Part shown: piece after piece, positions 8,948-51,648 of the stretch
How the letters are laid out: every line of letters starts with the position of its first letter
Numbering within the stretch: the stretch's first letter is position 1
From: Opitutia bacterium
Lineage (GTDB): Bacteria; Verrucomicrobiota; Verrucomicrobiia; Opitutales; T3Sed10-336
Reading direction: 5' to 3'
Assembly: GCA_003558065.1 (NCBI GenBank)
Contig: PWMU01000171.1
Span: 277 to 64,276, forward strand
Length of the DNA: 64,000 bases
The notes under the pieces: generated by a model
What the model was told of the DNA's origin: nothing
The model's input: the letters and a program-made list of their open reading frames with translations, nothing else
The model's database searches: none
Translations under genes and position numbers: made by a program

Positions 8948-9205
8948 CTATTCCTCCCTGTCCGGGTCAAAATCGCTGTATTCCGCTTCGTCTCCCGGCT
9001 GCTTTTTCAGGAGTTCGATCTTCAGTTCAGCGTCCCGGAGGCGTTTCTCGCACAACTTGAGAAGCTTGTTGCCCTCTTCGTAACGGGTGATCAGTTCGGC
9101 GAGGGGAACATCTCCCTGTTCCATGGTTTCCACGATCGATTCGAGCTTCTCAAGGGCTTTTTCGAAACTTAAATCGCTGTTGTTTTTTCGCTCTGCTTTG
9201 GACAC
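8948..9205 (-). CDS. xseB: Exodeoxyribonuclease VII small subunit
   Basis: 85 aa with a GTG start. LSFEKALEKLESIVETMEQGDVPLAELITRYEEGNKLLKLCEKRL is the classic XseB helical hairpin. It lies directly upstream of dxs. Confidence 0.9.
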   Translation of the reverse strand: MSKAERKNNSDLSFEKALEKLESIVETMEQGDVPLAELITRYEEGNKLLKLCEKRLRDAELKIELLKKQPGDEAEYSDFDPDREE

Positions 9206-9335
9206 ACTTGCATTTTGGCAGGCACAGTTCCGTTTTCAAACTAATCCTGCAAAACATTTCAAAAATTACGCTCACCTGAACCCAGCCATGGCCTACCTGG
9301 ACGAACCCAACGTGATCAGCGGGAAACGCGGTCGA

Positions 9336-9887: not shown

Positions 9888-9935
9888 TTTCGGTTTGCGG
9901 CCGGCGTCCGCCCCCTTCATGTTGCCGGGTTTATT

Positions 9936-20141: not shown

Positions 20142-21158
20142 TCAGCGCTGATCGACCTTGCCGACGGCGGCTTCGGGGTAGCGGGTGTGGTAATCTTCTC
20201 CGAACAGGCGCTTGTGGACCAGGTTGTTCCGGTGGATCTCCCAATCGCCCTTGCCGATACGGCGGTAAAAGAGAGTGACGAAGGAGGAGGTGATAACAAT
20301 GAAGCTCGAATAAAGGATCGCCAGCCACAGCATTTGGCTCTGCAGGGGTTCGCGAAAACTGAGCAGGATGATGGCGAAAGCGATCGGCCCGTTCTGGATA
20401 CCCGTTTCCAGGGAAACCGAGCGTTTGTAGCGCGGAGGAAGGCGCGTGAGCGAGGACATCCCGTAGCCGAACAGGAATCCGATCAAGCCGACACAGAGGC
20501 TTCCCAAATAGATTTGCCAAGGGGTAATGAGAAACAGATTGCTGTGCCGGATCAGCACGGAACCCAGCAGGAACAGGATGACAACGATCGCCATGAATCC
20601 CGCGGTGTCTTCAGCCGTTTTGGCCCAGTCGGGAGAGACGCGAAGCAGGATCATGCCGCCGGCCACGGGAACCAGAACCAGAAGGAGTGACAGGATGATG
20701 TTCGTGTAAGGCATCACGAAGCCGACGTCGTCCCCGGCTGCCCGCAGATCGGCATCGATCCGGTCCGCGAACCCCGAAGCATAAAGGTCCAGCAGGATCG
20801 GCATCATCACCAGGGCCAGGAGGGTGGAGGCGGCGGTCATGGAAATGCTTAACGCGACCGATCCCCGGGCGAAATAGGCGAACATGTTCGAGGTGGTGCC
20901 GCCCGGGAGGCAGCCGATCAAAATGAGCGCGATAGCAAGCGCCGGCGGCAACTGCAGGAGGACGGCCAGCGAGAACGCGATCAGCGGCATCAGGCCGAAT
21001 TGGGACAAAAAACCGATCAGCATTCCCCGGGGGCGTTCCAGGGCGCTGCGAAAGTCCTTCGGAGTCAGGGTGGCTCCCATGCCGAACATGATGATCAGGA
21101 TCATGATGGCCAAAAGCCCTTGTTCGACGGGATTGAGGAGTTGCTGATTGATTTCCAT
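20142..21158 (-). CDS. Bile acid:sodium symporter (BASS/SBF, PF01758-type) family transporter
   Basis: 338 aa. MFGMGATLTPKDFRSALERPRGMLIGFLSQFGLMPLIAF...IGCLPGGTTSNMFAY is the canonical SBF core. Confidence 0.9.
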   Translation of the reverse strand: MEINQQLLNPVEQGLLAIMILIIMFGMGATLTPKDFRSALERPRGMLIGFLSQFGLMPLIAFSLAVLLQLPPALAIALILIGCLPGGTTSNMFAYFARGSVALSISMTAASTLLALVMMPILLDLYASGFADRIDADLRAAGDDVGFVMPYTNIILSLLLVLVPVAGGMILLRVSPDWAKTAEDTAGFMAIVVILFLLGSVLIRHSNLFLITPWQIYLGSLCVGLIGFLFGYGMSSLTRLPPRYKRSVSLETGIQNGPIAFAIILLSFREPLQSQMLWLAILYSSFIVITSSFVTLFYRRIGKGDWEIHRNNLVHKRLFGEDYHTRYPEAAVGKVDQR

Positions 21159-21238: not shown

Positions 21239-23218
21239 TCATCGCTCAGCCTCCGCGCGGTGGTACATGGCATCGATTTCGGCGCGGTATTTTTCCGTTA
21301 CGACGTGGCGCTTGAGCTTGAAGAGGGTGGTCAATTCCTCGTCGGTGGTGAAGGGTTCCGGGAGGAGCCCGAATGCGTGGAGGCGTTCGTGGACCTTAAA
21401 TCCTTCTTTGTGTGAAATCCGTTGCCGGATCTCCGCGGCAATTCTTTGCCTGACCTCCTTCCGGCCGTTCAGCTCCGACCGGTGGTTCATCGAAATCCCG
21501 AGTTCCGAAAAGCCCTCGAGAGAGGGGACAATCAGTACGCCCGGATACTTCCGGTCCTGGCCGACGACCATGCATTGATCGATCAGGGCGGATTGGTTAA
21601 GGCGCATTTCGATCGGCGCGGGTTCCAAATTTTCTCCGCTGGAGAGTACAATGGTCTCCTTGCAGCGTCCGACAATTTTCAGGCAGTCGTTGAAGGTAAT
21701 GATGCCGATATCGCCGGTACGCAGCCACCCCTCGGCGAGGGCGGCTTTGGTCGCTTCGGAATTGCGGTAGTAGCCCTTCATGATCTGCGGCCCCCGAACG
21801 AGGATCTCGCCTTTCAGGCCTCTGCCGAGATCGTCGCGCGAGCGATCCGGGTAGAGGATCTTTTCCGTATCGAGTGAAACAATACGAATCTCCGTGTCGG
21901 GGATGACCGGCCCGACGGTGCCGATCACCAGTTTTGACGGGGTGCGCACCGCGATGACCGGCGACGTTTCGGTGAGTCCGTAGCCTTCGAGAACGGGGAT
22001 TCCCAGGTAGTTGAAGAACTGGTCGACTTCGCGCGGCAGAGCGCCGCCGCCCGAGACCGATCCTTTGAACGCGCCCCCGACGACCAGGCGAAGCTTTTCC
22101 AGTACCGCGGCATTGAAGAATCCGTACCACGGCAGCAGGAGGGCCCATCTCACCGCGTGAATGATCCCGAGGACGGCGGTGCGGATGCGTCCGCGTCCCT
22201 TGAGATCCAGGCTGCGCCCGGTCAGAAAGAAGACGGACTCCTTGTAATAGTGACTGAGGAAGTAGGCGGTATGAAAGAGCCCCCGGCGCACCGGATGGGC
22301 CTCTTTGACGCGTTTGAGGATCTTCTGGTGAATGCTCTCCCACAGCCGGGGAGCCGAGCCCATGAACGTGGGCTCGATGTTGCGCATGTCGTCGCTCAGT
22401 GTTCTGACGCTTGAGTAGAAGGTGCAACAGCCGCGGCTGACGGCGAGCATTTCGAACACGCGTTCGAAGATGTGCCAGACCGGAAGAATCGATACAACCC
22501 GGTCCGTGCAGGTGACCTCCAGCGGAATGCGTTCCAGTTGGGAAATCATGTTGGCATGCGTCAGCATGACCCCCTTCGGTTCGCCGGTGGTGCCCGAGGT
22601 GTAGATCAGCGTGAACAGGTCATCGGGACTGATCTGAGCCACCCGTTCTTCGACCCGGCGGTCGCCGGCATCGCGGAGCCGGCGTCCGGTTTCGATGAGC
22701 CCGGAAAGCCGGCGGACTCCTTCCGCGGGTTTGGCCCGGGGGTCCAGTAGAATCACTTCCCGGAGTTCCGGCAGCTTTCCGCGCAGACGCAGCAGGCGAT
22801 CCTGAAGGGTTTCCGTTTCAACAAACGCCGTCCGGATGCCGGCGTGGCGGAAAATAAAGGCGATTTCGCCGTCGGTCACATCCCGCCCGCGCGGTACGTC
22901 CGCCGCTCCGCATAACTGTACGCCGTAATCGGCGAGAATCCATTCCAGGCGATTGTCGCCAAGGAGCCCCACGTGGTCACGGGGTTCAACCCCGAGATCG
23001 ATCAGGGCGGTGGCCAGGAAGCATCCCCGGTTGTAAAGCTCCCGAAAGCCTGTGGGCTCCCATTCCAGCGCCTGCCGGCGGGTGGCGAACGCCGGCATAT
23101 CCCCCCATACCCGGGCCGCATTCGCATACAGCTCGGCCAGGTGGGCGCCGGTCACGCGGAAGCCGGCCGGCCGGTTCGATTGAGGTTGCTGCGTAAAGTG
23201 TCCAAAAGCGGAAGTCAT
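21239..23218 (-). CDS. Long-chain fatty acid--CoA ligase (AMP-dependent synthetase, FACS/ACSL-type)
   Basis: The AMP-binding signature is YTSGTTGEPKGVMLTH, with later GYGLTETS and TGDIG...KIVGRCKE motifs. Start chosen at the internal ATG (MTSAFGHF...). Confidence 0.9.
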   Translation of the reverse strand: MTSAFGHFTQQPQSNRPAGFRVTGAHLAELYANAARVWGDMPAFATRRQALEWEPTGFRELYNRGCFLATALIDLGVEPRDHVGLLGDNRLEWILADYGVQLCGAADVPRGRDVTDGEIAFIFRHAGIRTAFVETETLQDRLLRLRGKLPELREVILLDPRAKPAEGVRRLSGLIETGRRLRDAGDRRVEERVAQISPDDLFTLIYTSGTTGEPKGVMLTHANMISQLERIPLEVTCTDRVVSILPVWHIFERVFEMLAVSRGCCTFYSSVRTLSDDMRNIEPTFMGSAPRLWESIHQKILKRVKEAHPVRRGLFHTAYFLSHYYKESVFFLTGRSLDLKGRGRIRTAVLGIIHAVRWALLLPWYGFFNAAVLEKLRLVVGGAFKGSVSGGGALPREVDQFFNYLGIPVLEGYGLTETSPVIAVRTPSKLVIGTVGPVIPDTEIRIVSLDTEKILYPDRSRDDLGRGLKGEILVRGPQIMKGYYRNSEATKAALAEGWLRTGDIGIITFNDCLKIVGRCKETIVLSSGENLEPAPIEMRLNQSALIDQCMVVGQDRKYPGVLIVPSLEGFSELGISMNHRSELNGRKEVRQRIAAEIRQRISHKEGFKVHERLHAFGLLPEPFTTDEELTTLFKLKRHVVTEKYRAEIDAMYHRAEAER

Positions 23219-23385
23219 TTTCGGGAACGAGTGACGACGAACACGAGGCACTAGTTTTTCGGTTTGGGCGCGACAAACGCAACCTTCGTTTTCGGCCGGA
23301 GGGATCATTTGTTGATGAACTATTTCCGAATTTCTTGACCTGGATCAAAGGTTCGAACTAGTTTTCGGCCTATTATTGACGAACC

Positions 23386-26471: not shown

Positions 26472-27947
26472 ATGGGAAAAGATTGGTTAAAAGGTGTTGC
26501 CGACTATTATGATGCCGTGGTCATAGGGAGCGGTCTCGGGGGAATGACGGGGGCCAATTGCCTCGCGAAGGCGGGCCACTCCGTCCTGCTGCTGGAGCAC
26601 CATTACCAGCTGGGCGGCCTGGCAACCTGGTTCCGGCGCAAGGGAGGGCATATATTCGACATTTCCCTGCACGGGTTTCCGATCGGCATGATCAAATCCT
26701 GCCGAAAATACTGGAGCCGCGAGATTGCCGATTCGATCGTCCAACTGAAGAACGTCCGCTTCATCAATCCCGAGTTCAACGTCTGGACTACCTTTGACCG
26801 GAAGGACTTCACCCGGATCCTGACCGAGGATTTCGGCGTCACTCCCGAAACGGTCGAGCGATTTTTCCGGACGCTCCGGGAGATGAACTTCTACGACGAC
26901 GATCAGCGCACCACCGGCGAGTTGTTCGAGGAGTTCTTTCCCGGTCGCGACGACGTCAAGCGGCTGCTGATGGAGCCGATCGCGTACGCCAATGGGTCTA
27001 CCCTGGACGATCCCGCGATCACTTACGGCATCGTTTTTTCCAATTTCATGAGCAAGGGCGTCTATACCTTCCAGGGCGGAACCGACGACCTGATCAAGAA
27101 GATGGTTGGCGTGTTGCGAGGCAACGGAGTCGACCTGAGGCGCAACGCGCTCGTCGAGAAGTTGCTGGTCGAGGACCGGGGAAACGGCCGCGAGGTGACG
27201 GGGGTGGTCGCAAACGGAAGAGAGATTCGCTGCGGGGCGGTGCTTTCGAACGCGAACCTCAAGAACACGGTCCTCAAGCTGGGCGGCGAGGAGAACTTCG
27301 ATGACGATTATGTCCGCGAAGTGAAAGAGGTGCGGCTCAACAGCAGTTCCTCGCAGGTTTACATGGGGATCAGGAAAGGGGAAAGCATTCCCAATATCGG
27401 CGACCTCGTCTTCACCTCGGGTTCGCCGACCTTTTCCAGCGAAGAACTGGTGCGGCGGGACACCCGGAGCCGCACCTTCTCGGTCTATTACCCGGAGGTT
27501 CGCCCGGGAAGCGACCGTTACACGATTGTGGCGTCGCTCAACGCGCGTTACGAGGACTGGAGGGATCTTTCCGAGGAAGAGTACCAGGCTGAAAAGCAAC
27601 GGATGATCGAGGAATCGCTCGATGCCCTGGAGACTTACATTCCGGACATTCGCCGGAAAGTGGATCACCTGGAAGCCGCCACGCCGCGGACCATCGAGCA
27701 TTACACCCGGCACATGGCGGGAACCTCGTTCGGGACGAAGTTCGAAGGCTTGAAGTGCTCGATGGATCTTCCGGAAAAGCTTCCCGGGCTCTACCATGCC
27801 GGGTCCGTCGGCATCATCATGTCGGGATGGCTCGGCACGATCAATTACGGGGTTATCGTTTCCAACAAGGTCGACAAATACCTTCATGCCCGAAAACAGG
27901 GAGCCGGAGCGGAGCAGGGTTCGCCGACGGCGTTTGCCACGTCTTGA
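26472..27947 (+). CDS. CrtI/RetSat-like NAD(P)/FAD-dependent oxidoreductase (phytoene desaturase family), copy 1
   Basis: The Rossmann motif is [37 protein letters not shown], and the C-terminal segment is [18 protein letters not shown]. It is paralogous to 51952..53436. Confidence 0.85.
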
Positions 27948-28095
27948 GACGGCTTTCCGGCCGGGTTCGGATTGCGGCATGCCGGGCGGCTCCCGGCGAG
28001 CGCCCCCCGAACCGCGTCGCCCCGCCGTTGATCCTTGAAACGGGGCCGTAAACAAGGTACCGGTTTTTCTTTTCTCATCTAAAACACCGTCCAGC

Positions 28096-28533
28096 ATGAA
28101 CGAAGTTTACCGCAAGATTCCACACCGTCCTCCTTTTCTCTTCGTCGATGAGATCATCGAACGGAACGAAGATTCGATCACCACCCGGCGGGTTCTGCGC
28201 GAAGACGAAGCGCATTTCGAGGGACATTACCCCGGAAATCCCATCATGCCGGGCGTTCTCCTGTGCGAAGCGGTGTTCCAGGCCGGCGCCATTCTCCTGG
28301 CCAATCACGCCGGGGGCGAGCCGGGTGACCGGACTCCCGTGCTGACGCGCATCAGGGACGCCCGTTTCAAGAACATCGCCCGTCCGGGCGACGAGCTGAC
28401 TATTCGAGCAACCCTGATGGAAACCCTCGGTCAGTTCCGGTTTCTGCGCGGCAGCATCACCGCCGGGGACAGGAAAATCATGACCGTGGAATTCGGCCTT
28501 GCCTTGATTGAAGAGAATCGGTCCTCCTCATGA
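28096..28533 (+). CDS. FabZ-like 3-hydroxyacyl-ACP dehydratase (hotdog fold)
   Basis: [13 protein letters not shown]...[23 protein letters not shown] contains the catalytic His and the FabA/FabZ signature. Confidence 0.85.
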
Positions 28534-29333
28534 GTTTCCTCAACCTCGAAAACAAGAACATCCTCGTGTTCGGCGTCGCGAATCGCAAGAGCGTCGCTTA
28601 TCAGACCGGGAAAATCCTGGAAGAGCAGGGCGCCCGGGTCATTTACAGCGTGCGTTCGCCGGAGCGGCGCGAGCAGGTGCGCAAGTTGCTCGGTGAGGCG
28701 CCCGTGTATGTTTGCGACGTCGAGCGGGAGGAGGAGATCCGTCACTTGGCCGCGGCGGTGGCGAACGATCACGGCTCCCTTCACGGAATCGTCCATTCCA
28801 TCGCCTTCGCCAATTACAGCGAGGGATTCAAGCCGTTCCACGAGACTCAACGTGAAGACTTCCTGCAGGCAACGGCCATTTCCTGTTTCTCTCTGGTGGA
28901 GATCGCCCGCGCGTTCAAACCCTGCCTCGACCCGAAAGCGTCGGTTGTCGCGGTGAGCATCTCCTCCCACCTGGTCACCGCGGCGAATTACGGTTATATG
29001 TCACCGATCAAATCCGCCCTGGACGGAACGGTCCGCAACCTCGCCAAGTCGTTCAGCGCGGATACGGAAGTGCGGTTCAATACCGTCAACGCCGGACTGC
29101 TCAAAACGAGCGCCTCGGCCGGCATTCCCGGTTACATCGAAAGCTATCTTTACGGCGAAAAAATGACCTTCCGGAAGCGGGCGCTGGCCACCCGGGAAGT
29201 CGCCGATGCCATCCTGTTTCTGCTGAGCGAGCGATCCAGCGGGATGAACGGGACCGGCATGGTTATTGACGCGGGACTGGGGTGCAACTACTTCGACCAG
29301 GAACTGATCGACCTGGCGATGAAGCGGGCGTGA
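28530..29333 (+). CDS. FabI-like enoyl-ACP reductase (SDR)
   Basis: It aligns with FabI by eye: [15 protein letters not shown] (compare VTGVASKLSIAY) and the Y-x6-K motif in [12 protein letters not shown]. Its ATG overlaps the FabZ-like stop (ATGA). Confidence 0.8.
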
Positions 29334-29348
29334 TCGGGGGATTATTGG

Positions 29349-30395
29349 ATGAAGTTTGCCCACACGGTGCTTGAAACGCTGGCCTACGATCTTCCATCCA
29401 CCAGGTGGACTTCGGACGAGATCGAGGAGCGGCTGAAGCCTCTCTACGAGCGGCTGAAACTCCCGGCGGGGAGGCTGGAACTGATGACGGGGATCCGGGA
29501 GAGGCGTATTTGGGATTCGGGCACGCTGCCATCCGAGGCAAGCATCCTGGCCGGCAGGAAGGCGCTCGCCGCTTCAAAGATTCCCAGGGAGAAGATCGAT
29601 GTCGTGATCCACGCCGCGGTGTGCCGGGACCGCCTCGAGCCGGCGACGGCGGCCTACGTGCACGGGGCCCTGGAACTGTCGCCTCACACGCAGTTTTTCG
29701 ATGTCTCGAACGCGTGCCTGGGATTCCTCAACGCCGTAACGCTTGCCGGGGCCCTGATCGACTCCGGGCAAATCCGCAGCGCGTTGATCGTGGCCGGTGA
29801 AAACGGCCGGCCCCTTCTTGAGAACACCCTCAAACGCCTGCTCGACCCGGGACTGACGCGGAACGACATCAAACCCTATTTCGCCAATCTCACGATCGGC
29901 TGCGGAGCCGTGGCCGGGGTGGTGTGTCACGCCGGTCTGACCTCTTCGGGTTCCCGGTTCATAGGCGGGGCGTCGGTGACGGATACCGGGCAGAATCGTT
30001 TGTGCGAAGGCGACTCCGCCGCCGGCGGCGATGAACTCGAGATGCAGACCAACAGCGAAGAGCTGCTGGTTGCCGGTGTCGCCCTGGCGCGGAAAACCTG
30101 GATCGAGTTCAAACGGGAAACCGGGTGGGACGAGACGACCCCCGGGCGGATTGTCTGCCACCAGGTCGGCTCCGCCCATCGCCGCAAACTCTACGAATGC
30201 CTCGGGCTTTCCCTGGAAAAGGATTTCTCGACGTTCGCCACTCTCGGCAACATCGGTTCGGTGTCACTGCCGATCACGCTGGCACGGGCCGTCGAGGCGG
30301 GGGCGGTGCGCGGCGGCGACCGTGTTGCGCTGCTCGGTATCGGGAGCGGCATCAGCTCGATGATGCTGGCCATGGAATGGGGCGAAAATCAATGA
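29349..30395 (+). CDS. oleA: OleA-type thiolase (KAS III-fold head-to-head Claisen condensing enzyme)
   Basis: 348 aa. It is collinear with my recollection of Xanthomonas OleA: LAYDLPSTRWTSDEIEERLKPLYERLKLP, RERRIW, CRDRLEPATAAYV (Glu), FDVSNACLGF (Cys), LTIGCGA, CHQVGSAH (His), GNIGSVSLP (Asn), and the LLGIGSG...MEW end. Confidence 0.7.
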   Translation: MKFAHTVLETLAYDLPSTRWTSDEIEERLKPLYERLKLPAGRLELMTGIRERRIWDSGTLPSEASILAGRKALAASKIPREKIDVVIHAAVCRDRLEPATAAYVHGALELSPHTQFFDVSNACLGFLNAVTLAGALIDSGQIRSALIVAGENGRPLLENTLKRLLDPGLTRNDIKPYFANLTIGCGAVAGVVCHAGLTSSGSRFIGGASVTDTGQNRLCEGDSAAGGDELEMQTNSEELLVAGVALARKTWIEFKRETGWDETTPGRIVCHQVGSAHRRKLYECLGLSLEKDFSTFATLGNIGSVSLPITLARAVEAGAVRGGDRVALLGIGSGISSMMLAMEWGENQ

Positions 30396-31327
30396 TCACG
30401 GAATCCGAAAACGACGGCAACCGGGCCGAGTCGGCAGGTGACGGGGATGATCCCTTCTCGTGGGGGTCGTGGCGCGCCCTGTATCCCTTTAGAAGCCATT
30501 ACCTCACCGTCGGACAGGGGGCGCGGATGCACTACGTCGACGAAGGCGAGGGGGATCCGGTCTTGATGGTCCACGGAAATCCAACCTGGTCGTTTTATTA
30601 CCGCAGGCTGATCCTCGGGCTGCGCCGGAGGCACCGGTGCGTGGCGCCCGATCACATCGGCTGCGGCCTGTCCGACAAGCCCGGTGATTATACCTACCGC
30701 CTGCACCGGCACGTGGAGAATCTGGAGAAACTGGTGACCGGACTGGACCTGAAGAACCTCACCTTGGTGCTTCACGACTGGGGGGGCGCCGTCGGGATGG
30801 CCATGGCTCAGCGGCATCCGGAGCGGATCCGGCGTATCGTCCTCTTGAATACCGCTGCCTTTCCCTCCCCGCGCATTCCGTTTCGGATCGCCGTTTGCCG
30901 GACGCCTGTATTGGGCGCGGTGGCCGTCCGGTTCTTTAACGCCTTTGTCCGGGCCGCGCTCCGCATGGCGGTGGTCCATCGGGATCGAATGACTCCCAAT
31001 ACCGTGAGCGGCTACCTGCACCCCTACGACAGCTGGAGAAACCGGATTGCCGTCCTGCGATTCGTGCAGGACATTCCCATGAAGCCGGAGCACCCGAGTT
31101 ACGCGCTTCTGGCAAGGACCGGTGAAAACCTCGGGATCTTCCGGGACCGCCCCATGCTGATCTACTGGGGTGCCCGGGATTTCTGTTTCGATGACAGTTT
31201 CCTCCGCAAATGGCGCGAGCTGTTTCCTGAAGCCGAAATCCGCCGTATTGCGGACGCCGGCCATTACGTGCTCGAAGACGCGCACGAGGAAATCATTCCG
31301 GCGGTGCAGCGTTTTCTGGAAACTTGA
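30392..31327 (+). CDS. oleB: OleB-type alpha/beta hydrolase (haloalkane-dehalogenase-like; beta-lactone decarboxylase family)
   Basis: The ATG overlaps the OleA stop (ATGA). Motifs are HYVDEGEGDPVLMVHGNPTWSFYYR, PDHIGCGLSDKP, the nucleophile elbow LVLHDWGG, and the C-terminal DAGHYVLED. Confidence 0.7.
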   Translation: MITESENDGNRAESAGDGDDPFSWGSWRALYPFRSHYLTVGQGARMHYVDEGEGDPVLMVHGNPTWSFYYRRLILGLRRRHRCVAPDHIGCGLSDKPGDYTYRLHRHVENLEKLVTGLDLKNLTLVLHDWGGAVGMAMAQRHPERIRRIVLLNTAAFPSPRIPFRIAVCRTPVLGAVAVRFFNAFVRAALRMAVVHRDRMTPNTVSGYLHPYDSWRNRIAVLRFVQDIPMKPEHPSYALLARTGENLGIFRDRPMLIYWGARDFCFDDSFLRKWRELFPEAEIRRIADAGHYVLEDAHEEIIPAVQRFLET

Positions 31328-34334: not shown

Positions 34335-35888
34335 ATGACAACCTCGAGCAAAAGTCCAACCATTCTGGTCGTCGACGACGACCAGGAGATCCGCTATTCG
34401 ATGGAGCGGGTTTTTTCGTCCCGGAACTACCGCCTGTTGACGGCGGCCAGCGGCGAGGAAGGTATCGAGATCGTGCGCCGTGAATCGCCGGATGTGGTTT
34501 TTCTGGATATCCGCATGGGGGGAATCAGCGGTTTGGAAACGCTGCAGCACCTGAGGTCCATCGATCCGAATCCGATGATTATTCTGATGACGGCCTATGG
34601 AACCACCCAGACGGCGATCGAGGCGATGAAATTCGGAGCCTTCGATTACCTGATGAAACCCTTCGATATGAAGAAGGTGATCCGGTTGACGGAGGGGGCG
34701 CTCAAGTCCCGTGAGGATCTCCGCAGGATCGGGGATTACCGGCCTGTCATCAACAGCGAGGACTATCGGGAAGGCATTGTGGGCCGGTCGGAGGCGATGC
34801 AGGAGGTTTTCAAGATGATCGGCCAGGTGGCTGCCAGCGACGCGACGATTCTGATAACCGGCGAAAGCGGCACAGGGAAGGAACTGGTATCGCGGTGTAT
34901 TTACCAGCACAGTCAGCGGCACAAGAAACCGTTTTTTGCGGTGAATTGCGCGGCGCTGCCGGATAACCTGATCGAGAGCGAGCTTTTCGGTCATGAAAAA
35001 GGGGCGTTCACCGGCGCCACCGGCCAGCGGGCCGGAAAATTCGAACTCTGTGACGGGGGAACAATTTTTCTCGATGAAATCGGGGACATGAGTCTGCCGA
35101 CCCAGACGAAGATTCTCAGGGTGATTCAGGACGGCGAGATCCAGCGGGTCGGGGGGTCGGAGACGATCAGGACCGATGTGAGGATGATCGCGGCGACCAA
35201 CCGGAATCTCGAAGCGATGGTGCGGGAGAAGACTTTCCGCGAGGACCTTTATTATCGCTTGAATGTGGTGAGAATCCGCCTCCCTTCGCTTCGCGAGCGC
35301 CGGGAGGATATTCCGGAACTGATCGATTACTGTCTTCAGAAACTGCAGAAGAAGCACAAGTCGCGTGTTCGAACCGTTTCTCCGGAAACACGCGCCGCCT
35401 TGATGCGGTACGAGTGGCCGGGGAACGTTCGGGAACTGGAGAACGTGATCTATCGGAGCGCCGTGCTTGCCCAGGGGGACGCGATTCTAGTGAAGGATCT
35501 GCCCGAGGAAATCCGGGCGGCCGGGGAGGGAGGAGCGATCCCGGAAGAGGCGGGAGCGTCCGGGGAGGGTCCCGCAAAGGCTCCGGTTTCGGTCGAAGAT
35601 CCCGGAAAGGCCGCGGCGGGGGCGGCCGGGTCTGTGCCGGAGAGTCATTCAGGGGAGTCCTTGTCGCCGGCCGAACCCGAGAACATGGACGTGACGTTCA
35701 CTGCTCTCTACGAGCGAATGCGGGAGGAGTCTCATGAATCGATTCTCGAAACGCTGGAGCGCGAGATGATTTTGCGGGCACTCCGTGAGACCCGCGGCAA
35801 CCAGGTCAAGGCCTCGGCCATTCTTGGGATCACCCGCGCCACCCTCCGCAAGCGGATCGAGCGGTTTTCATTGAAGGATCAATTGTGA
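34335..35888 (+). CDS. Sigma54-dependent response regulator (NtrC/AtoC family enhancer-binding protein)
   Basis: It has a receiver domain (ILVVDDD...DVVFLDIRM), an AAA+ sigma54-interaction domain ([29 protein letters not shown]) and a Fis-type HTH ([21 protein letters not shown]). Confidence 0.9.
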
Positions 35889-36022
35889 TCGCGTCGGGAG
35901 CGTGCCGTTCCTGTGACTCCGGAGCGGTGCCCGCATTGAGCGGCTCCCGCGGGCATTCGGGGCGGCGATCCGCCAAAATCGTGCTTTCCCTTGGACCCTG
36001 GATTGTGCTAGTCCTGTACGGC

Positions 36023-37561
36023 ATGAGCCGTTTTTCCCTTGTTGCCGTCCGTCTCACTGTAGGGATTTCCTTTTTCTATACGGCCTGGCTTCCCTTGTCC
36101 CACGCGACGCTGCCCTCGGGAGCCGAGATTATTGAGGGGTCGGCCGGTCTGTTCGAAATGAGAGCCAGCTACCTGGTCGAGCAGGAGAGCGACCGGGTGG
36201 TGATCGAGTGGGAGGATTTTTCGATCGGCGAGGGCAGGCGGGTGACATTCGATCAGCCCGGGGCGGCCGCGGCGGCACTGAACCGTGTGGTCGGGGGAGA
36301 TCCGACGGAGATCCACGGGGAACTGAACGCGAACGGCAAGGTGTACCTCATCAATCCGAACGGCGTTCTCGTCGGATCGAGTGGGGTGATCCATGCCGGC
36401 TCGTTCATCGCCTCGACGCTCGACGTCGACAATGACGGTTTTATGGGCGGGGGCGACCTGGAGTTTGCCGTTGCGGACGACGACCTGCGAAGTGCGGTTC
36501 GGAACTTCGGGGAGATTCAGGCGCTCGGCGGGGATGTTTTTCTCTTTGCGCAACGGGTGGAGAACCGGGGGCGCCTGGAGGCTCGTTCGGGAACCGCCGG
36601 ATTGGCGGCGGCGGGCCGCCTGCTCCTGAAGAGTTCCGGTGACCGGCGTATCGCGGTGCTGGCGCCGCCCGGGGCCGAGGCAGGCGAAGACGAGGAAGCC
36701 TCCGTCTGGAATACCGGCCAGATTCGCGCCGCCTCCGTCGAGCTTAAGGCGGCGCGGGGCAATCACTACGCGCTGGCGATCAATAACGAAGGAGTGGTGC
36801 GCGCCGACACGGTTGAAGAGGACGGCGGCCGGATTTTCCTCAGGGCGGGTTCGGGCGACGTCTCCCACACCGGCCAACTCGATGCTTCGGGCAACCGTGG
36901 CGGCCGGGTGGAAGTCGAGGGCGACAACGTGGAGGTTGCGGATGGCGGCGGTATTGACACTTCCGGCGGCGGAACCGAGGCGAGCGGTTGGATCGACGTG
37001 CGCGGCGGGAACCTGCTGTTGAACGGAACGATCACCGGGCAGGGGAGGATGCGGTATTTTGCCGGGCAGGACATTGAGATCGGGCCCGCGGGAGTGATCG
37101 ACAATTCGGGAAGTGTGGAGGCGACCCTCTTTGTCGTCGATCATGCCAATCCGGATCGTCCCGGCGTGGGTTCGGGGGTGTTCGTCAACCTGGGCGTCCT
37201 GACTCCGGGTAACGCACTGGGCATTTTTACGGCCGGCCCGCGGGATATTCGGCCGCGCAACGTCGAGGGAATCGTCGATGAAGTCGTGTTCGACACCTGG
37301 TTCGGGGAACCCGGCGAGATCGTGGGGAATCGTCTCTTTTTCAAGTCCGGGCCGCCCCTGCCCGACCCCTCCTGGAGCCCCGCGTTCGATCTGTACGATC
37401 GTTTGGCCGCTCTTTACGACTGGCCCGTGATCCCGGTGTCCGCCGCCGTGTTTTATTATGAAGAGGATCCCGAACGCCGGGAATTTGCTCCGGAACTCAC
37501 GGAGCCCGGGCGCCTGAGTGAAACCGGTCTCAGCAGCAGCGGGGCATTCAGGAGGAACTGA
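36023..37561 (+). CDS. Short TpsA-like exoprotein with a hemagglutination-activity (TPS) domain
   Basis: TPS hallmarks are IEWEDFSIGEG..VTFDQP, ALNRVVGGDPTEIHGELNANGKVYLINPNGVLVG, followed by beta-helical G-rich coils. Start chosen at the signal peptide MSRFSLVAVRLTVGISFFYTAWLPLSHA. An alternative GTG at 35885 overlaps the regulator stop. Confidence 0.8.
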   Translation: MSRFSLVAVRLTVGISFFYTAWLPLSHATLPSGAEIIEGSAGLFEMRASYLVEQESDRVVIEWEDFSIGEGRRVTFDQPGAAAAALNRVVGGDPTEIHGELNANGKVYLINPNGVLVGSSGVIHAGSFIASTLDVDNDGFMGGGDLEFAVADDDLRSAVRNFGEIQALGGDVFLFAQRVENRGRLEARSGTAGLAAAGRLLLKSSGDRRIAVLAPPGAEAGEDEEASVWNTGQIRAASVELKAARGNHYALAINNEGVVRADTVEEDGGRIFLRAGSGDVSHTGQLDASGNRGGRVEVEGDNVEVADGGGIDTSGGGTEASGWIDVRGGNLLLNGTITGQGRMRYFAGQDIEIGPAGVIDNSGSVEATLFVVDHANPDRPGVGSGVFVNLGVLTPGNALGIFTAGPRDIRPRNVEGIVDEVVFDTWFGEPGEIVGNRLFFKSGPPLPDPSWSPAFDLYDRLAALYDWPVIPVSAAVFYYEEDPERREFAPELTEPGRLSETGLSSSGAFRRN

Positions 37562-37598: not shown

Positions 37599-39371
37599 AT
37601 GAGGTTGAGCAACGTATCCGGCATATTGGCAGCGCTCCTTTGGGTGGTGGTTCTGGGCGCGACGGCATTGAGCGCGCAGGACGAGGATGAAACGACTCCG
37701 CACGAGCCCGAGGGAGAGGAGGAGAGGCCGGAGGTTCCATTTGAACTGCCCGATTTCGACCGGGATGAGGACGAGGCGACGGTTCTTATTGAGGAGTTGA
37801 AAGCACTGGTGATCCGTCCTGCCCTGGCGGAAGAAAGACGCGACCTCCCCTCGCAGGCGACCGGTATCGTTTATGTCACGGGGCTTCCCTTGCTGAACAC
37901 CCCGGAATTCAGGCGCAACGCCCGGAAGTACCTGGGGAAACCGCTGACAACCGAGACGTTGGACGAACTTCTCCGCGAAATCATCATCACTTACCGCGAT
38001 AATCGCCGGCCTGTAGTCGACGTGATCGTTCCGGAACAGGACGTGACCCACGGGCACCTGGTTCTCGAGGTGTTGGAGGGGCAGGTGGGCCGCGTGCAGG
38101 TGACCGGCCAGCGCTGGTTCCGCCGGCCGATTTTCACGAGCAAGATTCGCTTTGAACGCGGCGATGAAATCGATTCGCTGATGCTCCAGGAGGACCTCGA
38201 CTGGATGAACAGGAATCCCTTCCGGCGGGTCGACGTGGTTTATGCGCCGGGCTCCGAACCCGGCGAGACCGACCTGTTATTCGAGGTCGAGGACCGGTTT
38301 CCGTTCCGTGTTTACGGCGGTTTTGAAAATACCGGTAACCGGCTCACCGGCGAAGAACGCTTTCTGGCGGGCTTCAACTGGGGGCACGCGTTTGCCATGG
38401 ATCACGAGCTCAACTACCAGTTCACCACCGGCCGGTACATGGACCGGGTTAAGGCTCATTCGGGGAGCTACGTGATACCCTTGCCGCTGCGTCACGAAGT
38501 CCGTTTCTTCGGCAATTACGTCGAATCCGATGTGGACGTCGATTCCAACCTGGCCCTGGAAGGGGAATCCCTCCGGCTCAGCGGACGATATGCGATTTTT
38601 CTGACGGGGTGGGAGCTTCCCTCACGCGGTTTGAGCCTGTCCCAGGAGTTTACCCTGGGGGCCGATTTCAAGCGGGCGGACAATTCCCTCGAGTGGGGGG
38701 AGATCAATGTCTATGACACCGCGACCGAAATCATACAGGCAATGACCCGCTACAGTGGAACGCTGAGGGATCCTTTCGGGAAGAGCGAGTTCCACGCCGG
38801 AGTGTATTACAGTCCCGGCGATTTCATCAGCAGACGGAACCGGGACCGCTTTTTTGACGAGGCTCGCGCCGGTGCCGAATCCAGGTACTACACGGCGCGG
38901 CTGGGTTTTGACAGATTGTCCCATATTTCCCAGGGCTTCACTTTAAAAAAGAGCGGGTTGTATCAGTACACGGACAGCCGTTTGCTCGCCAGCGAACAGC
39001 TCGGGGTCGGCGGGCATGCCAGCGTTCGGGGGTACGAGGAGCGGGCCGCCGCCGGGGACAACGGCTATTTGCTGAGCGCGGAACTCAGGTCGCCGGAATT
39101 CAACTGGAACGAACTCACGGGGTTCGGGCGCCCGGCACCCGACCGATGGCAAGTGCTCGGCTTCCTCGACTACGGCGTTGCCGAAATCAAGGATCCGCAG
39201 GCCGGCGAGGAGCGGCGCAGGCATTTGCTCGGCGCGGGCCCGGGCCTCCGAGTCAGAGTCGACGACAACTTTTTTCTGCGTTTCGACTACGGCTGGCAGA
39301 TACGGGATGACGCCGTGGCGAACGACACAAGGGATCACCGGGCACACGCGGCGGTGATTCTGAGCTATTGA
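37599..39371 (+). CDS. ShlB/FhaC/HecB-family TpsB outer-membrane transporter
   Basis: It has a signal peptide, a POTRA-type region (LVLEVLEGQVGRVQVTGQRWF) and a C-terminal beta-barrel ending in an aromatic residue (...AAVILSY). Confidence 0.85.
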   Translation: MRLSNVSGILAALLWVVVLGATALSAQDEDETTPHEPEGEEERPEVPFELPDFDRDEDEATVLIEELKALVIRPALAEERRDLPSQATGIVYVTGLPLLNTPEFRRNARKYLGKPLTTETLDELLREIIITYRDNRRPVVDVIVPEQDVTHGHLVLEVLEGQVGRVQVTGQRWFRRPIFTSKIRFERGDEIDSLMLQEDLDWMNRNPFRRVDVVYAPGSEPGETDLLFEVEDRFPFRVYGGFENTGNRLTGEERFLAGFNWGHAFAMDHELNYQFTTGRYMDRVKAHSGSYVIPLPLRHEVRFFGNYVESDVDVDSNLALEGESLRLSGRYAIFLTGWELPSRGLSLSQEFTLGADFKRADNSLEWGEINVYDTATEIIQAMTRYSGTLRDPFGKSEFHAGVYYSPGDFISRRNRDRFFDEARAGAESRYYTARLGFDRLSHISQGFTLKKSGLYQYTDSRLLASEQLGVGGHASVRGYEERAAAGDNGYLLSAELRSPEFNWNELTGFGRPAPDRWQVLGFLDYGVAEIKDPQAGEERRRHLLGAGPGLRVRVDDNFFLRFDYGWQIRDDAVANDTRDHRAHAAVILSY

Positions 39372-39767: not shown

Positions 39768-40805
39768 TCATCCTGCCGGGCTGAGGCGGCAACTGTGACA
39801 CGAAAACCCGGCGCCGAAGGAAGCCAGCCAGAAATCTCCCTCCCCGGTATCGTTTTCCAGAGCGCGATCCAGAGCGAAGAGAACGCTGGGGCTGCTCATG
39901 TTGCCGCAGTGCCGGAGGGTTTCATAACTCTCCGAAAGCGGATGCCCGGGAAGCTGGCCCTCGATCGCGGCGAGCACATCCCGCCCCCCGGGGTGGGCGA
40001 GAACCGTGCCGACCGGAATTCCGTTGTCAGCCGAAAACAGGGATTTGACCGCGAGGGCCGCCTTTTCCGGGACCGTTTTATGCAGCTTGTTGCGCAGCTT
40101 GCCGGCCTGGGTCTCGAAGCGGAGCAATTCCCGGTCGGCGGGAATGTGAACCGTGCGGAATCCATGGGCGTATCTTGCGGGGCGTCCGGCGCGCGGCTTC
40201 CCCGTGCAGACCGCGGCCGCCGCGCCGTCGGAAAAGAGACAGGCGCTGATCAGAACCCCCGGGTCGTTGTCCAGATAAAAGGCCGCCGAACAGATCTCCA
40301 CCGCGACCACGGCAACGCGGGAATCCGGCTGAGCGGCAAGAAAATGGCCGGCCGCGCGCATGGTCGGAATCGCGGCGCCACACCCGAGACCAACCAGATC
40401 CTGCAGAAACCCGTCGGAGCGAATGCCGAGCTGTTCCGAAACATAGCTGCTCAATCCGGGACAAAGGTAGCCGGTACAGGTGCAGATCAACAGGGCGTCG
40501 AGATCGGCGGGACGCAGGGAAGCGCGGTCGAGCGCGTCGCGTAAGGCCCGCCCCGCGAGCAGCGGGGCTTCGCGGCGAAAGGTTTCGTTCAGTTCGTCGA
40601 CGTCCTGATCGAATACCCGCTCGATTTCCGGCGTGACAAAGTGCCGCGAGGCGATTCCGTTGTCGGTGGTCAGAACCTTGCGCAGAATCGACAGCGACCT
40701 GGAGGTGAGACCCTTGACCAGATCGGATCCGTTCAGGATTTCCCAGCACTCGTTCTGCGTAAAACGATTGGGAGGAACGGCCGTGGCTAAGGATTGAACG
40801 TACAT
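39768..40805 (-). CDS. Type III polyketide synthase (chalcone/stilbene synthase superfamily)
   Basis: The Cys-His-Asn triad contexts are VGLGCGAAIPT, LAHPGGRDV and CGNMSSPSV. Start chosen at MYVQSLATAVPPNRFTQ. Confidence 0.85.
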   Translation of the reverse strand: MYVQSLATAVPPNRFTQNECWEILNGSDLVKGLTSRSLSILRKVLTTDNGIASRHFVTPEIERVFDQDVDELNETFRREAPLLAGRALRDALDRASLRPADLDALLICTCTGYLCPGLSSYVSEQLGIRSDGFLQDLVGLGCGAAIPTMRAAGHFLAAQPDSRVAVVAVEICSAAFYLDNDPGVLISACLFSDGAAAAVCTGKPRAGRPARYAHGFRTVHIPADRELLRFETQAGKLRNKLHKTVPEKAALAVKSLFSADNGIPVGTVLAHPGGRDVLAAIEGQLPGHPLSESYETLRHCGNMSSPSVLFALDRALENDTGEGDFWLASFGAGFSCHSCRLSPAG

Positions 40806-40937
40806 GCGCTGGGATCCGAGGGTTGACAACTCACTGGCCAGATCGTCGCACAACAGGACAAACCCTGGCTGTGTCCACTATGTCTGGAACCGCCGGCGGA
40901 TCAAACCACGGCGGCCGGAAATCCGGCCCCGGCACGT

Positions 40938-41378
40938 TTACCCTCCACCCCCCTGAAACCAGTGATAGAGGAAGAAGTAGACCAACACCCCGGTTACCGA
41001 GACGTAATACCAGAGCGGAAAGGTCCAGCGGGCCCATTTGCGGTGTTGTTTGAAATTCGCTTTCAGGGCGTGCCAGAATGTTATGATGACCAGCGGCACG
41101 ATGGCCATTGCCAGGATGATGTGAGAGATGAGCATCGGGTAGTAGACCCACGCCCAGAAACCCTCTCCGCCGAACTCGGTATGGACGCCTCTAACCAGGA
41201 TCTTGTGCAGGACGTAGAAGAAAAGGAAGACCAGCGAAACCCCGAACGCGCTTATCATCGCCGCCCGGTGGCGCTTGACCTGCTTCCTCAGAATAAAGAT
41301 GAACCCGGCGGTGAGCAAAAGGGTCGCCACGCCGTTGAGCAGGGCGTTCAATGTGGGAAGAAATTCGGTGAAGGTCAT
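40938..41378 (-). CDS. DUF420 family membrane protein
   Basis: 146 aa with four TM segments: LNALLNGVATLLLTAGFIFIL...HRAAMISAF...YYPMLISHIILA...HRKWARWTFPLWYYVSVTGVLVY. This family is typically linked to the heme A / cytochrome oxidase assembly genes. Confidence 0.8.
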   Translation of the reverse strand: MTFTEFLPTLNALLNGVATLLLTAGFIFILRKQVKRHRAAMISAFGVSLVFLFFYVLHKILVRGVHTEFGGEGFWAWVYYPMLISHIILAMAIVPLVIITFWHALKANFKQHRKWARWTFPLWYYVSVTGVLVYFFLYHWFQGGGG

Positions 41379-41384: not shown

Positions 41385-42314
41385 TCAGGCGAAAAACCAG
41401 ATATCGGCCACCAGGCAGGCGAGCAGCAGCGGCAGGTAGAGGATCGATACGAAAAAGATCTTCCGGGCCGCTTCCTCGCGGTTGACGGCATTTTTGAATT
41501 TCATGATCCGCCATTGGAAGTGACCGCCAAGGAGCAGGGCAACGGCGATGTAGAGGAAGCTGGTCTGACCCAGAATACCCGGGAGCAGGGTGGTGATCCA
41601 GAGAAGGGCCCCGTAGACCGTCATGTGGCGGGCAACCCGGAAACCGCCTGGATCGATGGTCGTGAGCATCGGGAACCGGACCGCGCCGTAATCCTCACGG
41701 TACAGCCAGGCGATGGCGTGAAAGTGCGGCATCTGCCAGAAAAACAGGATCCCGAACAGAACCCAGCCGCCGGTTCCAACTGTTCCCTCCGCCGCGGCCC
41801 AGCCGACAATAGGCGGGATCGCCCCGGAAATCGCGCCGACTTCGGTGCACCAGTGCGTCTGTTTCTTGAGGGGCGTGTACGCCAGAATGTACACGGCCAC
41901 CGTCAGGAGTACCAGAAACCCCGCGGGTGGGTTGACTCCAAAGTTGAGCTGGATTCCGCCCAGGCCGCAAAGCACGAGTCCCAGCACCAGGGCGGCGGAA
42001 GGCGGCACGTGCCCGGTGGGAATCGGGCGATCCTTGGTCCGCTGCATTCCGGTGTCGGTGGCGCGTTCCAGCCACTGATTGAGGACCGCCGCGCCGCCGG
42101 CGGCGAAAGAGGTTCCGATCATCAGGTGAATCAGCGTCCACCCGTCCACTGCCGGCCTCGCGGCGAAATAGCCGACCAGGACGGTCACCACCGAGAGGAG
42201 GCTCAGGCGCGGCTTGGTGAGCTCGAGGTACTTGCCCCAGTCGAGAAGACCGCCTTTGATTCCCGCCCGCGGGCCAATTCCGGATGAGTCGGAAGCTCGG
42301 GTGTGCGGAGTCAT
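41385..42314 (-). CDS. ctaB: Protoheme IX farnesyltransferase (heme O synthase)
   Basis: UbiA-family polytopic protein (DRPIPTG, YTPLKKQT motifs). Its ATG overlaps the ctaA stop. Confidence 0.9.
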   Translation of the reverse strand: MTPHTRASDSSGIGPRAGIKGGLLDWGKYLELTKPRLSLLSVVTVLVGYFAARPAVDGWTLIHLMIGTSFAAGGAAVLNQWLERATDTGMQRTKDRPIPTGHVPPSAALVLGLVLCGLGGIQLNFGVNPPAGFLVLLTVAVYILAYTPLKKQTHWCTEVGAISGAIPPIVGWAAAEGTVGTGGWVLFGILFFWQMPHFHAIAWLYREDYGAVRFPMLTTIDPGGFRVARHMTVYGALLWITTLLPGILGQTSFLYIAVALLLGGHFQWRIMKFKNAVNREEAARKIFFVSILYLPLLLACLVADIWFFA

Positions 42315-43369
42315 TGGCTGGTGGCGTCGGTCAGCGGTGCGTCGAGCCCGCGATTGGCTTTTTCCCTGTCCGTGACCCTGGCTGGAAAACTCCGTTTTGC
42401 ACCTGTAGCCCGGAAAAAACTGAAGGTGATCCCCCAGGCGAGTGCCAGGATCAGGGCTCCGACGATAACGTGCAGGGTGGTTGGATAAGGATTGCGGTGG
42501 AACCAGATAATCGAGGCGCCCAGGTAGATTTGTGCCCCCAGCAGAAAAACCAGGCCCGCACCCATGCCTTTCAGGGCGACCGCTACCCGGTCGGAGTACC
42601 AGAGCTTCCAGGCAAAGATGAGCAGCACAATACTGACCGCCGCCGCTCCGACCCGGTGCGCGAAGTGAATGCCGACCTGGAAATTCCAGGCCGGAGGCAG
42701 CAGGGAATCGGCGGAAGACAAGGGGAAATACGGGATCGCCAATCCGGCGTCGTGATGCCGCATCACCGCACCGAGGATAAGTTGCAAGAAGACCGCCGCG
42801 CAGGCGACGATTCCCCAGGTGCGCAGCGCGTTGTCAACAGGGCGAAGGATTCCCGCTCCGCGCTCGATCCAGAAGCGTGACAGCGCCAGGGCCATCCCCA
42901 CGATCACGCAGAGAAACGCCTGGGCCGTGCAGGCGTGGATGATGGCGAGGGTCTGGGCCAGGTAATTGTGTTCGGTCTGGATGTTCAACTGATCGAAGAC
43001 CACCCGTCCGCCGCCGAGCAGGCCCTGTATAGCCACCAGCACGAAGGCCGCCGTCCCGAGCCGGCGCAGCCAGCGGCGTTCCTCACGCAGGAAAAGCCAG
43101 ATCGCGAGGGCTATCACAAGCAGGCCGACCTGGGCTCCGAGCAGGCGGTGACTGTGCTCGGCGAACATGTCCTGATCGTGCAGCCAGCCCGACGGGTTGA
43201 GCGATCCGTCCGACAGGGGCCAGTCCAGAAAGACCATGCCGGCGCCGATGCTGGTGGTGAAGCCGCCCATCAACAAAAGCAGCAGGGTCCACCCCACGGT
43301 GAACCACGCCAGCCAGGCCAGGGCGGGTTTGTAGCGGTCATTTCGTTTCTGCGAGAGAGAACAGGACAT
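42311..43369 (-). CDS. ctaA: COX15/CtaA family heme A synthase
   Basis: 352 aa with eight TM segments and conserved His pairs (EHSHRLLG, IHACTAQ, FAHRVGA). It lies upstream of ctaB. Confidence 0.85.
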   Translation of the reverse strand: MSCSLSQKRNDRYKPALAWLAWFTVGWTLLLLLMGGFTTSIGAGMVFLDWPLSDGSLNPSGWLHDQDMFAEHSHRLLGAQVGLLVIALAIWLFLREERRWLRRLGTAAFVLVAIQGLLGGGRVVFDQLNIQTEHNYLAQTLAIIHACTAQAFLCVIVGMALALSRFWIERGAGILRPVDNALRTWGIVACAAVFLQLILGAVMRHHDAGLAIPYFPLSSADSLLPPAWNFQVGIHFAHRVGAAAVSIVLLIFAWKLWYSDRVAVALKGMGAGLVFLLGAQIYLGASIIWFHRNPYPTTLHVIVGALILALAWGITFSFFRATGAKRSFPARVTDREKANRGLDAPLTDATSQ

Positions 43370-43469
43370 CTAATTGTACGAATTAATAAGAGAAGAAATT
43401 CAGGTTCGGTAATTGATAATCAAACGAAACAGCCAATAATGATGCTCGTTGGCTGGCAAGAGGAACTTT

Positions 43470-51626: not shown

Positions 51627-51648
51627 TAGAGTCAACCCTTTTGATTAT

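Follow-up and report, generated by a model that had tools for sequence, protein, structure and literature searches.

The window analysed here, a stretch of 64,000 nucleotides (nt) of contig PWMU01000171.1 from an Opitutia bacterium of the order Opitutales, carries orthologues of oleA and oleB, genes of head-to-head olefin biosynthesis, within a run of five co-directional genes at 26472-31327. Beside them lie genes for a flavoprotein, a dehydratase and a reductase, and three further genes at 50391-53436 in the same window belong to the same set, as judged from related genomes, so that an eight-gene set is present here in two parts lying 19 kb apart. The initial annotation had counted three accessory genes; in fact there are six. 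The eight genes are the following:

26472-27947, + strand: flavoprotein 1, 491 amino acids (aa), a divergent flavin adenine dinucleotide (FAD) enzyme of the CrtI/CrtD/CrtISO family
28096-28533, + strand: FabZ-like hotdog dehydratase, 145 aa (Pfam FabA, 65 bits)
28530-29333, + strand: FabI-like short-chain dehydrogenase/reductase (SDR) of the enoyl-reductase type, 267 aa (adh_short_C2, 193 bits)
29349-30395, + strand: OleA orthologue, a predicted head-to-head Claisen-condensing thiolase, 348 aa (NF006720, 424.5 bits)
30392-31327, + strand: OleB orthologue, a haloalkane-dehalogenase-like alpha/beta hydrolase, 311 aa with the ATG at 30392 taken as start
50391-51626, + strand: FabF-like beta-ketoacyl synthase (KS; Pfam ketoacyl-synt N and C domains)
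51649-51909, + strand: acyl carrier protein (ACP; Pfam PP-binding)
51952-53436, + strand: flavoprotein 2 (Pfam Amino_oxidase and FAD-binding families)

Open reading frame (ORF) coordinates and junction sequences agree with the five co-directional genes and ATGA overlaps first described for 26472-31327. The overlaps join the hotdog and SDR genes at 28530 and oleA and oleB at 30392, where the oleB start overlaps the oleA stop by 4 nt; gaps of 15 nt and 148 nt separate the SDR gene from the thiolase gene and the flavoprotein 1 gene from the hotdog gene, respectively. In the second part of the set, the ACP start (ATG at 51649) lies 22 nt past the KS stop. Pfam and NCBIfam returned the same families that the initial annotation had named for the five genes (Amino_oxidase, FabA/FabZ, adh_short_C2/FabI-like, ACP_syn_III/PRK09258 and Abhydrolase_1/haloalkane-dehalogenase-like). 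The motifs it had read in the hydrolase (HGNPTWSFYYR, HDWGG and AGHYVLED) and in the SDR (Y-x6-K) were all found, and purU is indeed the next gene after oleB (TIGR00655, 351 bits; cut-off 286). The GC content of the region, 0.605-0.619, is unremarkable, and recent horizontal transfer is therefore not indicated. Plasmid searches with Xanthomonas campestris OleA and with flavoprotein 1 gave no match, and a scan for promoters and terminators gave nothing above shuffled expectation.

Identity of OleA, OleB and the accessory proteins

OleA joins two fatty-acyl thioesters head to head to give a 2-alkyl-3-keto acid. The window thiolase exceeded the cut-off of NCBIfam model NF006720 (424.5 bits against 285), a model of generic family name (PRK09258) whose link to OleA comes from the crystallised X. 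campestris OleA, which has it as its best model (477.6 bits). FabH models reached 92-104 bits on the same protein, below their cut-offs. A PDB search with the thiolase returned OleA structures at 226-236 bits (3ROW, 235.6 bits), with the best FabH at 70.6 bits. Residues E97, C123, H271 and N301 align with E117, C143, H285 and N315 of the X. campestris enzyme, and the catalytic Cys, His and Asn together with the OleA-specific base Glu are invariant in 12 aligned sequences. The published OleA pattern, EPxx[AS]x(14,18)DxxNACL (PMC7158056), is present as EPATA-x16-DVSNACL. Identity to Xanthomonas OleA is 39%. Taken together, the model scores, the PDB scores and the alignment of the four residues support the earlier choice of OleA over FabH: the thiolase at 29349-30395 is, by homology, an OleA orthologue and not FabH.

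OleB is a dehalogenase-like hydrolase that decarboxylates a beta-lactone to a cis-olefin. As references for OleB, OleC and OleD we used canonical Xanthomonadales ole clusters recovered from metagenome contigs (including L085 and L091), whose OleC and OleD seeds scored 1049 bits on NF045786 and 631 bits on NF042422. The window hydrolase is 44-45% identical over its full length to the OleB proteins of L085 and L091 (235 bits), whereas the best dehalogenase-like chain in the PDB scored 162 bits, which places it nearer to the OleB of ole clusters, as had been suspected. Dehalogenase models gave 180 bits for the window protein and 153-157 bits for genuine Xanthomonadales OleB, values that likewise lie below the cut-offs. 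All 58 sequences compared, Xanthomonas OleB included, keep the Asn of HGNPTW, the Asp-Trp of HDWGG and the His of GHY. The hydrolase at 30392-31327 is thus assigned as an OleB orthologue, with beta-lactone decarboxylase as its predicted activity by homology.

The reference contig L085, whose OleA is 100% identical to that of X. campestris, has a Fic-type adenylyltransferase gene at 9160-10278 between oleA and oleB, and its oleC is followed by a CadC-like regulator, not by oleD. Extra genes in the Xanthomonas ole region have been noted before (PMC7064751).

The proteins encoded beside oleA and oleB are less easily placed in known families. Flavoprotein 1 scored 50 bits on Pfam Amino_oxidase, and its NCBIfam matches were CrtD (100 bits; cut-off 550), carotenoid isomerase (94 bits) and crtI_fam TIGR02734 (81 bits; cut-off 238). 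A profile of 17 of its orthologues found CrtD (4REP, 48 bits) and CrtI (4DGK, 38 bits) as the nearest solved structures, both weak matches. A single-sequence AlphaFold model had a predicted local distance difference test (pLDDT) score of 36 and was unusable for fold comparison. Across Opitutales the orthologues of flavoprotein 1 are 62-76% identical. Below the crtI_fam and CrtD cut-offs, the protein is assigned by its profile matches to the CrtI superfamily only. Flavoprotein 2 is a distant paralogue of flavoprotein 1 (about 23% identity) with weak matches to CrtISO and CrtD, and it is 59% identical to the product of the gene that lies between those for the ACP and flavoprotein 1 in locus L084. 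Both flavoproteins have a GxGxxG FAD motif, which is N-terminal in flavoprotein 1.

The remaining four proteins resemble enzymes of type II fatty acid synthesis while scoring below the corresponding models. For the hotdog protein, FabZ models gave 99 bits against a cut-off of 113 (NF000582) and 94 bits against 155 (TIGR01750), and the catalytic residues, His in GHYPG and Glu in CEAVFQ, are kept by 44 of 44 orthologues. The SDR reached 164 bits on its best FabI model, for which the cut-off is 370, and fell below the cut-off of all 13 FabI models; in the PDB search it matched Staphylococcus aureus FabI at 136 bits. Its Y-x6-K and GVANxKS-A motifs are kept without exception in 48 orthologues, and it has the glycine motif of FabI; from these features the SDR is predicted to work like FabI, yet it is not classed as a housekeeping FabI. 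The KS retains its Cys-His-His motifs and scored 305 bits on TIGR03150 (cut-off 494) and 298 bits on PRK07314 (cut-off 387). It shares 69% identity with its L084 counterpart, whose gene immediately precedes the oleAB module there, as in 17 further loci. The ACP has the DSM serine motif and gave 35-40 bits on AcpP models with cut-offs of about 70; it matches the ACP ORF of L084 by tblastn at 65% identity, and in its mature form it is 75-84% (median 82%) identical to orthologues in 21 loci. All six accessory proteins are accordingly classed, on their model scores, as divergent paralogues that are not of the housekeeping types and that keep their catalytic motifs. Median identities among orthologues are 82% for the ACP, 71% for flavoprotein 1, 70% for the KS and 67% for the SDR, against 61% for OleA and 50% for OleB.

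Other genes of the window lie around and between these two groups. The interval between the cluster halves holds a type III polyketide synthase-like ORF at 39768-40853 (- strand; Pfam FAE1_CUT1_RppA and Chal_sti_synt), which adjoins genes of haem A/cytochrome oxidase assembly: DUF420 (40938-41378), a UbiA-family gene (41385-42314), CtaA (42311-43369) and SCO1 (43449-44426). A two-partner secretion (TPS) pair at 35885-37561 and 37599-39371 (+ strand) is unrelated to the ole cluster; it encodes a protein whose N-terminus carries a TPS domain, together with a transporter of the ShlB/FhaC type.

Conservation of the module and the place of OleC and OleD

With an OleA alignment as query, one genome per species was scanned, which yielded 569 relatives, and the best 80 of the 569 were examined, all of them Opitutales. 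Dozens of species-level Opitutales genomes share the order flavoprotein 1-hotdog-SDR-oleA-oleB while their flanks are unrelated, among them Verrucomicrobiae bacterium DG1235 and Nibricoccus sp. IMCC34717; conservation of the five-gene neighbourhood in relatives, which the initial annotation had named as a point to check, was thus observed. ORF clustering placed the genes for a KS, a small ACP and flavoprotein 2 directly upstream of the module in many Opitutaceae loci. Among the 50 loci with enough flanking sequence, the arrangements were distributed as follows:

KS-ACP-flavoprotein 2-flavoprotein 1-hotdog-SDR-oleA-oleB: 18 of 50 loci
flavoprotein 1-hotdog-SDR-oleA-oleB: 13 of 50 loci
hotdog-SDR-oleA-oleB: 9 of 50 loci
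oleA-oleB only: 6 of 50 loci
oleA alone: 3 of 50 loci
SDR-oleA-oleB: 1 of 50 loci

Since the same order recurs while the flanks are unrelated, the accessory genes are not chance neighbours of oleA and oleB. None of the six was found near oleA in 80 Xanthomonadales loci.

Two further observations concern the surroundings of oleA in these relatives. In gut Opitutales (L040, L043 of Ca. Spyradenecus, and L080), oleA, at about 10001-11030 of these loci, has neither an adjacent oleB nor accessory genes, and the gene after it encodes an ABC-type ATPase, as read from its sequence; an OleC-family protein exists in the gut genus Ca. Spyradosoma. In ten other loci (L013, L015, L018, L028, L039, L049, L060, L063, L065 and L073), a family resembling fabD, the gene of the housekeeping malonyl-CoA:ACP transacylase, lies on the opposite strand about 4 kb downstream of oleB, where it follows lepB-like and lepA-like families; all three names come from reading the sequences.

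Canonical systems encode OleC, an AMP-dependent beta-lactone synthetase, and OleD, a 2-alkyl-3-oxoalkanoate reductase, beside OleA and OleB, in a contiguous oleABCD or oleA-oleBC-oleD layout that this locus does not show. tblastn with the Xanthomonas OleC and OleD seeds found no homologue in the 64-kb window, the sole match being a 39-residue AMP-motif stretch of a FadD-like gene at 21239-23308 (- strand). Exact-protein look-ups extended the sequence by 10 kb past either end, to 84 kb read in all, and these flanks contained ordinary housekeeping genes and neither OleC nor OleD. The claim that no OleC or OleD lies nearby therefore holds over the window and both flanks. By the same kind of look-up, the window falls in the metagenome-assembled genomes GCA_007129275.1 and GCA_007130315.1 and in the ENA assemblies ERZ27301263 and ERZ27301261, which may come from Kulunda soda lakes. 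In the 80 Opitutales loci, genuine OleC and OleD seeds likewise found no oleCD pair within 10 kb of oleA.

Two candidates were considered and rejected. The FadD-like ligase was set aside as an OleC because it matches FadD-type models and shares only the 39-residue motif with the seed; none of its 25 best NCBIfam matches, which go down to 116 bits, is PRK09274 or either OleC model. This gene encodes a long-chain acyl-CoA ligase of 689 aa and is followed by an SBF-family transporter gene at 20142-21158 (- strand). The ligase could supply acyl-CoA, and it is not conserved near oleAB in the 80 related loci. Upstream of oleAB in Opitutaceae loci, weak matches to the OleD seed proved to be a divergently oriented gene, GalE-like by sequence reading alone, and were rejected at 26-34% identity against 46-51% for true OleD homologues.

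Elsewhere in the order, OleC and OleD are present. A search of a 50%-identity representative library with X. campestris OleC led to a clade with an Opitutia member, and a profile of this clade matched 6860 proteins at E<=1e-50. The names Opitutaceae, Opitutus or Cephaloticoccus are attached to many of these proteins, and some carry the JGI name 'olefin beta-lactone synthetase'. In 8 of 8 proteins looked up, and on every contig displayed for them, a gene of the 3beta-HSD/epimerase family lies directly downstream of OleC. The two genes usually overlap by 4 nt, and an RNase D-like gene precedes the pair in a conserved setting; in L169-L181 the order is a histone-deacetylase-like gene, an RNase D-like gene, oleC and oleD. 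For one such pair, OleC scored 659 bits on NF006754 (cut-off 478) and OleD scored 401 bits on the OleD model against 144 bits for the next family. Opitutales thus have genuine homologues of OleC and OleD, encoded by two overlapping genes at a conserved locus of their own. This is in line with reports of KEGG oleABCD functions in Opitutae metagenome-assembled genomes (MAGs; PMC5673642), of oleC in Opitutaceae MAGs (PMC10176705), and of olefin production by a verrucomicrobial strain, which PMC7158056 cites from Sukovich 2010.

A SpoU-type methylase gene follows oleD directly or past one small gene in L169-L174, L176 and L180, and the context of the oleC-oleD pair could serve to mark it in fragmented MAGs.

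The initial annotation had left open whether the pathway is split or an undescribed variant operates here. A split pathway, with oleAB at this locus and oleCD elsewhere, is favoured, because Opitutales carry oleCD at another locus and because the divergence of that pair from Xanthomonas matches that of OleA and OleB: identities are uniform, at 39% for OleA, 45% for OleB, 43-45% for OleC and 46-51% for OleD, the pattern expected of one co-inherited four-gene pathway split between two loci. The evidence for this arrangement comes from the order and would be extended to the present genome by homology. The suggestion that the accessory enzymes replace OleC and OleD is unlikely to apply. What stands of that proposal is a lineage-specific set that conserved synteny links to oleAB and that may serve tailoring or supply.

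Proposed acyl supply to OleA and competing explanations

We consider it reasonably probable that the locus reflects ordinary Ole chemistry with split loci, joined by an accessory branch of acyl supply. OleA would condense acyl chains, OleD would reduce the product, OleC would form the beta-lactone, and OleB would decarboxylate it to the cis-olefin; oleAB would act from this locus and oleCD from elsewhere in the genome. With less confidence, we propose that the accessory enzymes build or tailor acyl chains for OleA. In such a scheme, they would form a dedicated ACP-dependent branch of discrete enzymes, comprising flavoprotein 1 and the FabZ-like and FabI-like proteins encoded here, and the KS, the private ACP and flavoprotein 2 encoded at 50.4-53.4 kb, with FabG and FabD borrowed from primary metabolism. 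The branch would elongate acyl chains, the two CrtI-family flavoenzymes might desaturate or isomerise them, and OleA would then condense the products.

The closest parallel to this proposal is the link between ole genes and polyunsaturated fatty acid-type (pfa) synthases. These synthases supply OleA, and ole genes are often linked to pfa-like precursor clusters (PMC3098273, PMC6463001). Both cases place KS, ACP, dehydratase and enoyl-reductase machinery physically beside ole genes, which fits precursor supply, and the accessory branch would be a type II counterpart of this physical and metabolic link. Unlike the multidomain Pfa proteins, the Opitutales enzymes are discrete (type II), and their cluster has two CrtI-family flavoproteins and neither a FabA-type dehydratase nor a PfaD-type enoyl reductase. 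A list of pfa-bearing genomes includes no Verrucomicrobia (PMC3098273), and a discrete-enzyme supply route in this phylum is plausible for that reason.

Compared with canonical oleABCD of X. campestris, Shewanella oneidensis and Micrococcus luteus, the window encodes full-length OleA (39% identity) and OleB (45%) with all catalytic residues, and the OleC and OleD homologues of Opitutales are 43-51% identical. The Opitutales genes differ in that they form separate oleAB and oleCD loci instead of one cluster, and in that oleAB lies within six conserved non-ole genes that are absent from the 80 Xanthomonadales loci. The oleACD beta-lactone clusters for lipstatin and nocardiolactone (PMC7064751) also combine a partial ole set with tailoring enzymes; those clusters lack OleB and make lactones, whereas the window locus has OleB and is without local OleC and OleD.

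Two other systems recall the accessory proteins more than the ole genes. In the synthesis of furan fatty acids, UfaD is a CrtI-family enzyme that acts on a fatty acyl chain. It is a precedent for a phytoene-desaturase-like flavoenzyme that introduces a double bond beside one already present in an acyl chain, and the flavoproteins may be likened to it. Phytoene-desaturase-like genes also occur in anammox ladderane clusters. The window hotdog protein does not side with the anammox type, being no closer to 7QV0 (65 bits), which we take to be a candidate anammox-type dehydratase chain of unconfirmed source organism, than to ordinary FabZ (69 bits). The Opitutales cluster further differs in having no radical-SAM genes and in being linked to ole genes. 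The likeness to the anammox 'ladderane' clusters (amxACP, a variant FabZ and a FabF-like KS; PMC10139942) lies in a private ACP with divergent FabZ and FabF types within the Planctomycetes-Verrucomicrobia-Chlamydiae (PVC) group.

Several observations weigh against an acyl-supply branch coupled to a split Ole pathway. Characterised OleA enzymes use acyl-CoA, not acyl-ACP. No ketoreductase or acyltransferase gene was found in the cluster, and the proposed link between the accessory genes and olefins rests on synteny. Several marine lineages (Coraliomargarita, Lentimonas and some Puniceicoccaceae) have oleAB without the accessory genes, so that the link is not obligatory at the level of the locus. 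Conservation of the accessory proteins equals or exceeds that of OleA and OleB, which would also fit an independent core function. As to the split pathway itself, none of the 8 OleC look-ups gave an oleCD contig sharing an assembly with any oleAB locus, and in this genome OleC and OleD were not found within the 64 kb and 10 kb on each side.

A bolder version of the supply proposal would make the product itself new. A discrete-enzyme route, independent of pfa synthases, might build unusual chains for OleA, for instance polyunsaturated or conjugated ones, or the flavoenzymes might desaturate the finished olefin, and the product would then be a hydrocarbon class of no described Ole system. We hold this only tentatively, as a possibility of low probability.

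The accessory genes might instead constitute an independent lipid pathway, for example for unsaturated or special membrane fatty acids, that merely neighbours oleAB. A type II fatty acid synthase requires a KS, an ACP, a dehydratase and an enoyl reductase, and such a pathway would agree with the higher conservation of the accessory proteins relative to OleA and OleB, with the 19 kb between the cluster halves in the window, and with the absence of accessory genes from the oleAB flanks in some lineages. About 10 Opitutaceae loci have a fabD-like gene some 4 kb from the cluster, and unusual monoenes such as C16:1w5 are reported from Opitutales (PMC13274419, Table 1). Against it, both the window and distant relatives show tight or translational coupling of the SDR, oleA and oleB genes, the contiguous eight-gene order is kept in 18 of the 50 loci while the flanks differ, and the ACP, KS, FabZ-like and FabI-like proteins all fall below housekeeping cut-offs. 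We regard this explanation as unlikely.

Phytoene, a long hydrocarbon, is modified in its central region by CrtI-family enzymes. The flavoenzymes, and possibly the dehydratase and the reductase, might similarly act after condensation, either desaturating, isomerising or saturating the region of the central double bond of the olefin or modifying the intermediate, a beta-keto or beta-hydroxy acid. The closest relatives of flavoprotein 1 are CrtD, CrtISO and CrtI, which act beside existing double bonds of long hydrocarbon chains, and its gene is co-directional with and upstream of oleA-oleB. Such tailoring would leave the private KS and ACP unexplained, both of which point to thioester-bound chemistry before condensation, and hotdog-SDR-oleA-oleB occurs without an adjacent flavoprotein gene in 9 of the 50 loci; we therefore judge it quite improbable. 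Least likely, and to us barely credible, is a variant independent of OleC and OleD, with keto-reduction and lactone formation taken over by the SDR, the dehydratase and the flavoprotein, so that these three with OleA and OleB would suffice for the final product: it would agree with the lack of OleC and OleD in the 84 kb read and of an oleCD pair within 10 kb of oleA in the 80 Opitutales loci, but Opitutales widely carry OleC-OleD pairs whose divergence from Xanthomonas equals that of OleA and OleB, the SDR is of the enoyl-reductase Y-x6-K type and not the extended-SDR type of OleD, and some lineages have oleAB by itself.

The presence of ole genes in Verrucomicrobia has been known since 2010, and the OleA/OleB part of the locus is ordinary for that reason. 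Opitutaceae TAV2 may make a polyunsaturated C31 olefin. No account linking OleA or OleB to FabZ, FabI or phytoene-desaturase-like genes came up in a literature search, and the conserved association of oleAB with six accessory genes appears undescribed in the searchable literature. Neighbourhood-based surveys tend to discard or under-call split loci because they need oleB, oleC or oleD near oleA: one survey of oleA requires oleBCD homologues within 5 kb (PMC7158056), and another asks for two or more flanking ole genes no further than six genes away (PMC7064751).

Ordinary Ole chemistry with an accessory acyl-supply branch, if true, would have consequences beyond this locus. Olefins of the head-to-head type are widespread as membrane hydrocarbons and are of interest as biofuel targets, and the acyl supply to OleA sets their chain structure. 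The branch would be a second kind of precursor-supply system for OleA besides the pfa synthases, and it would give phytoene-desaturase-like enzymes a new role in fatty-acyl or hydrocarbon chemistry. A soda-lake family of Opitutales has a cultured member, Verruconatronum alginivorum (PMC13274419), and cultured Opitutales with eight-, four- or two-gene arrangements make the coupling of the accessory genes to olefin synthesis directly testable.

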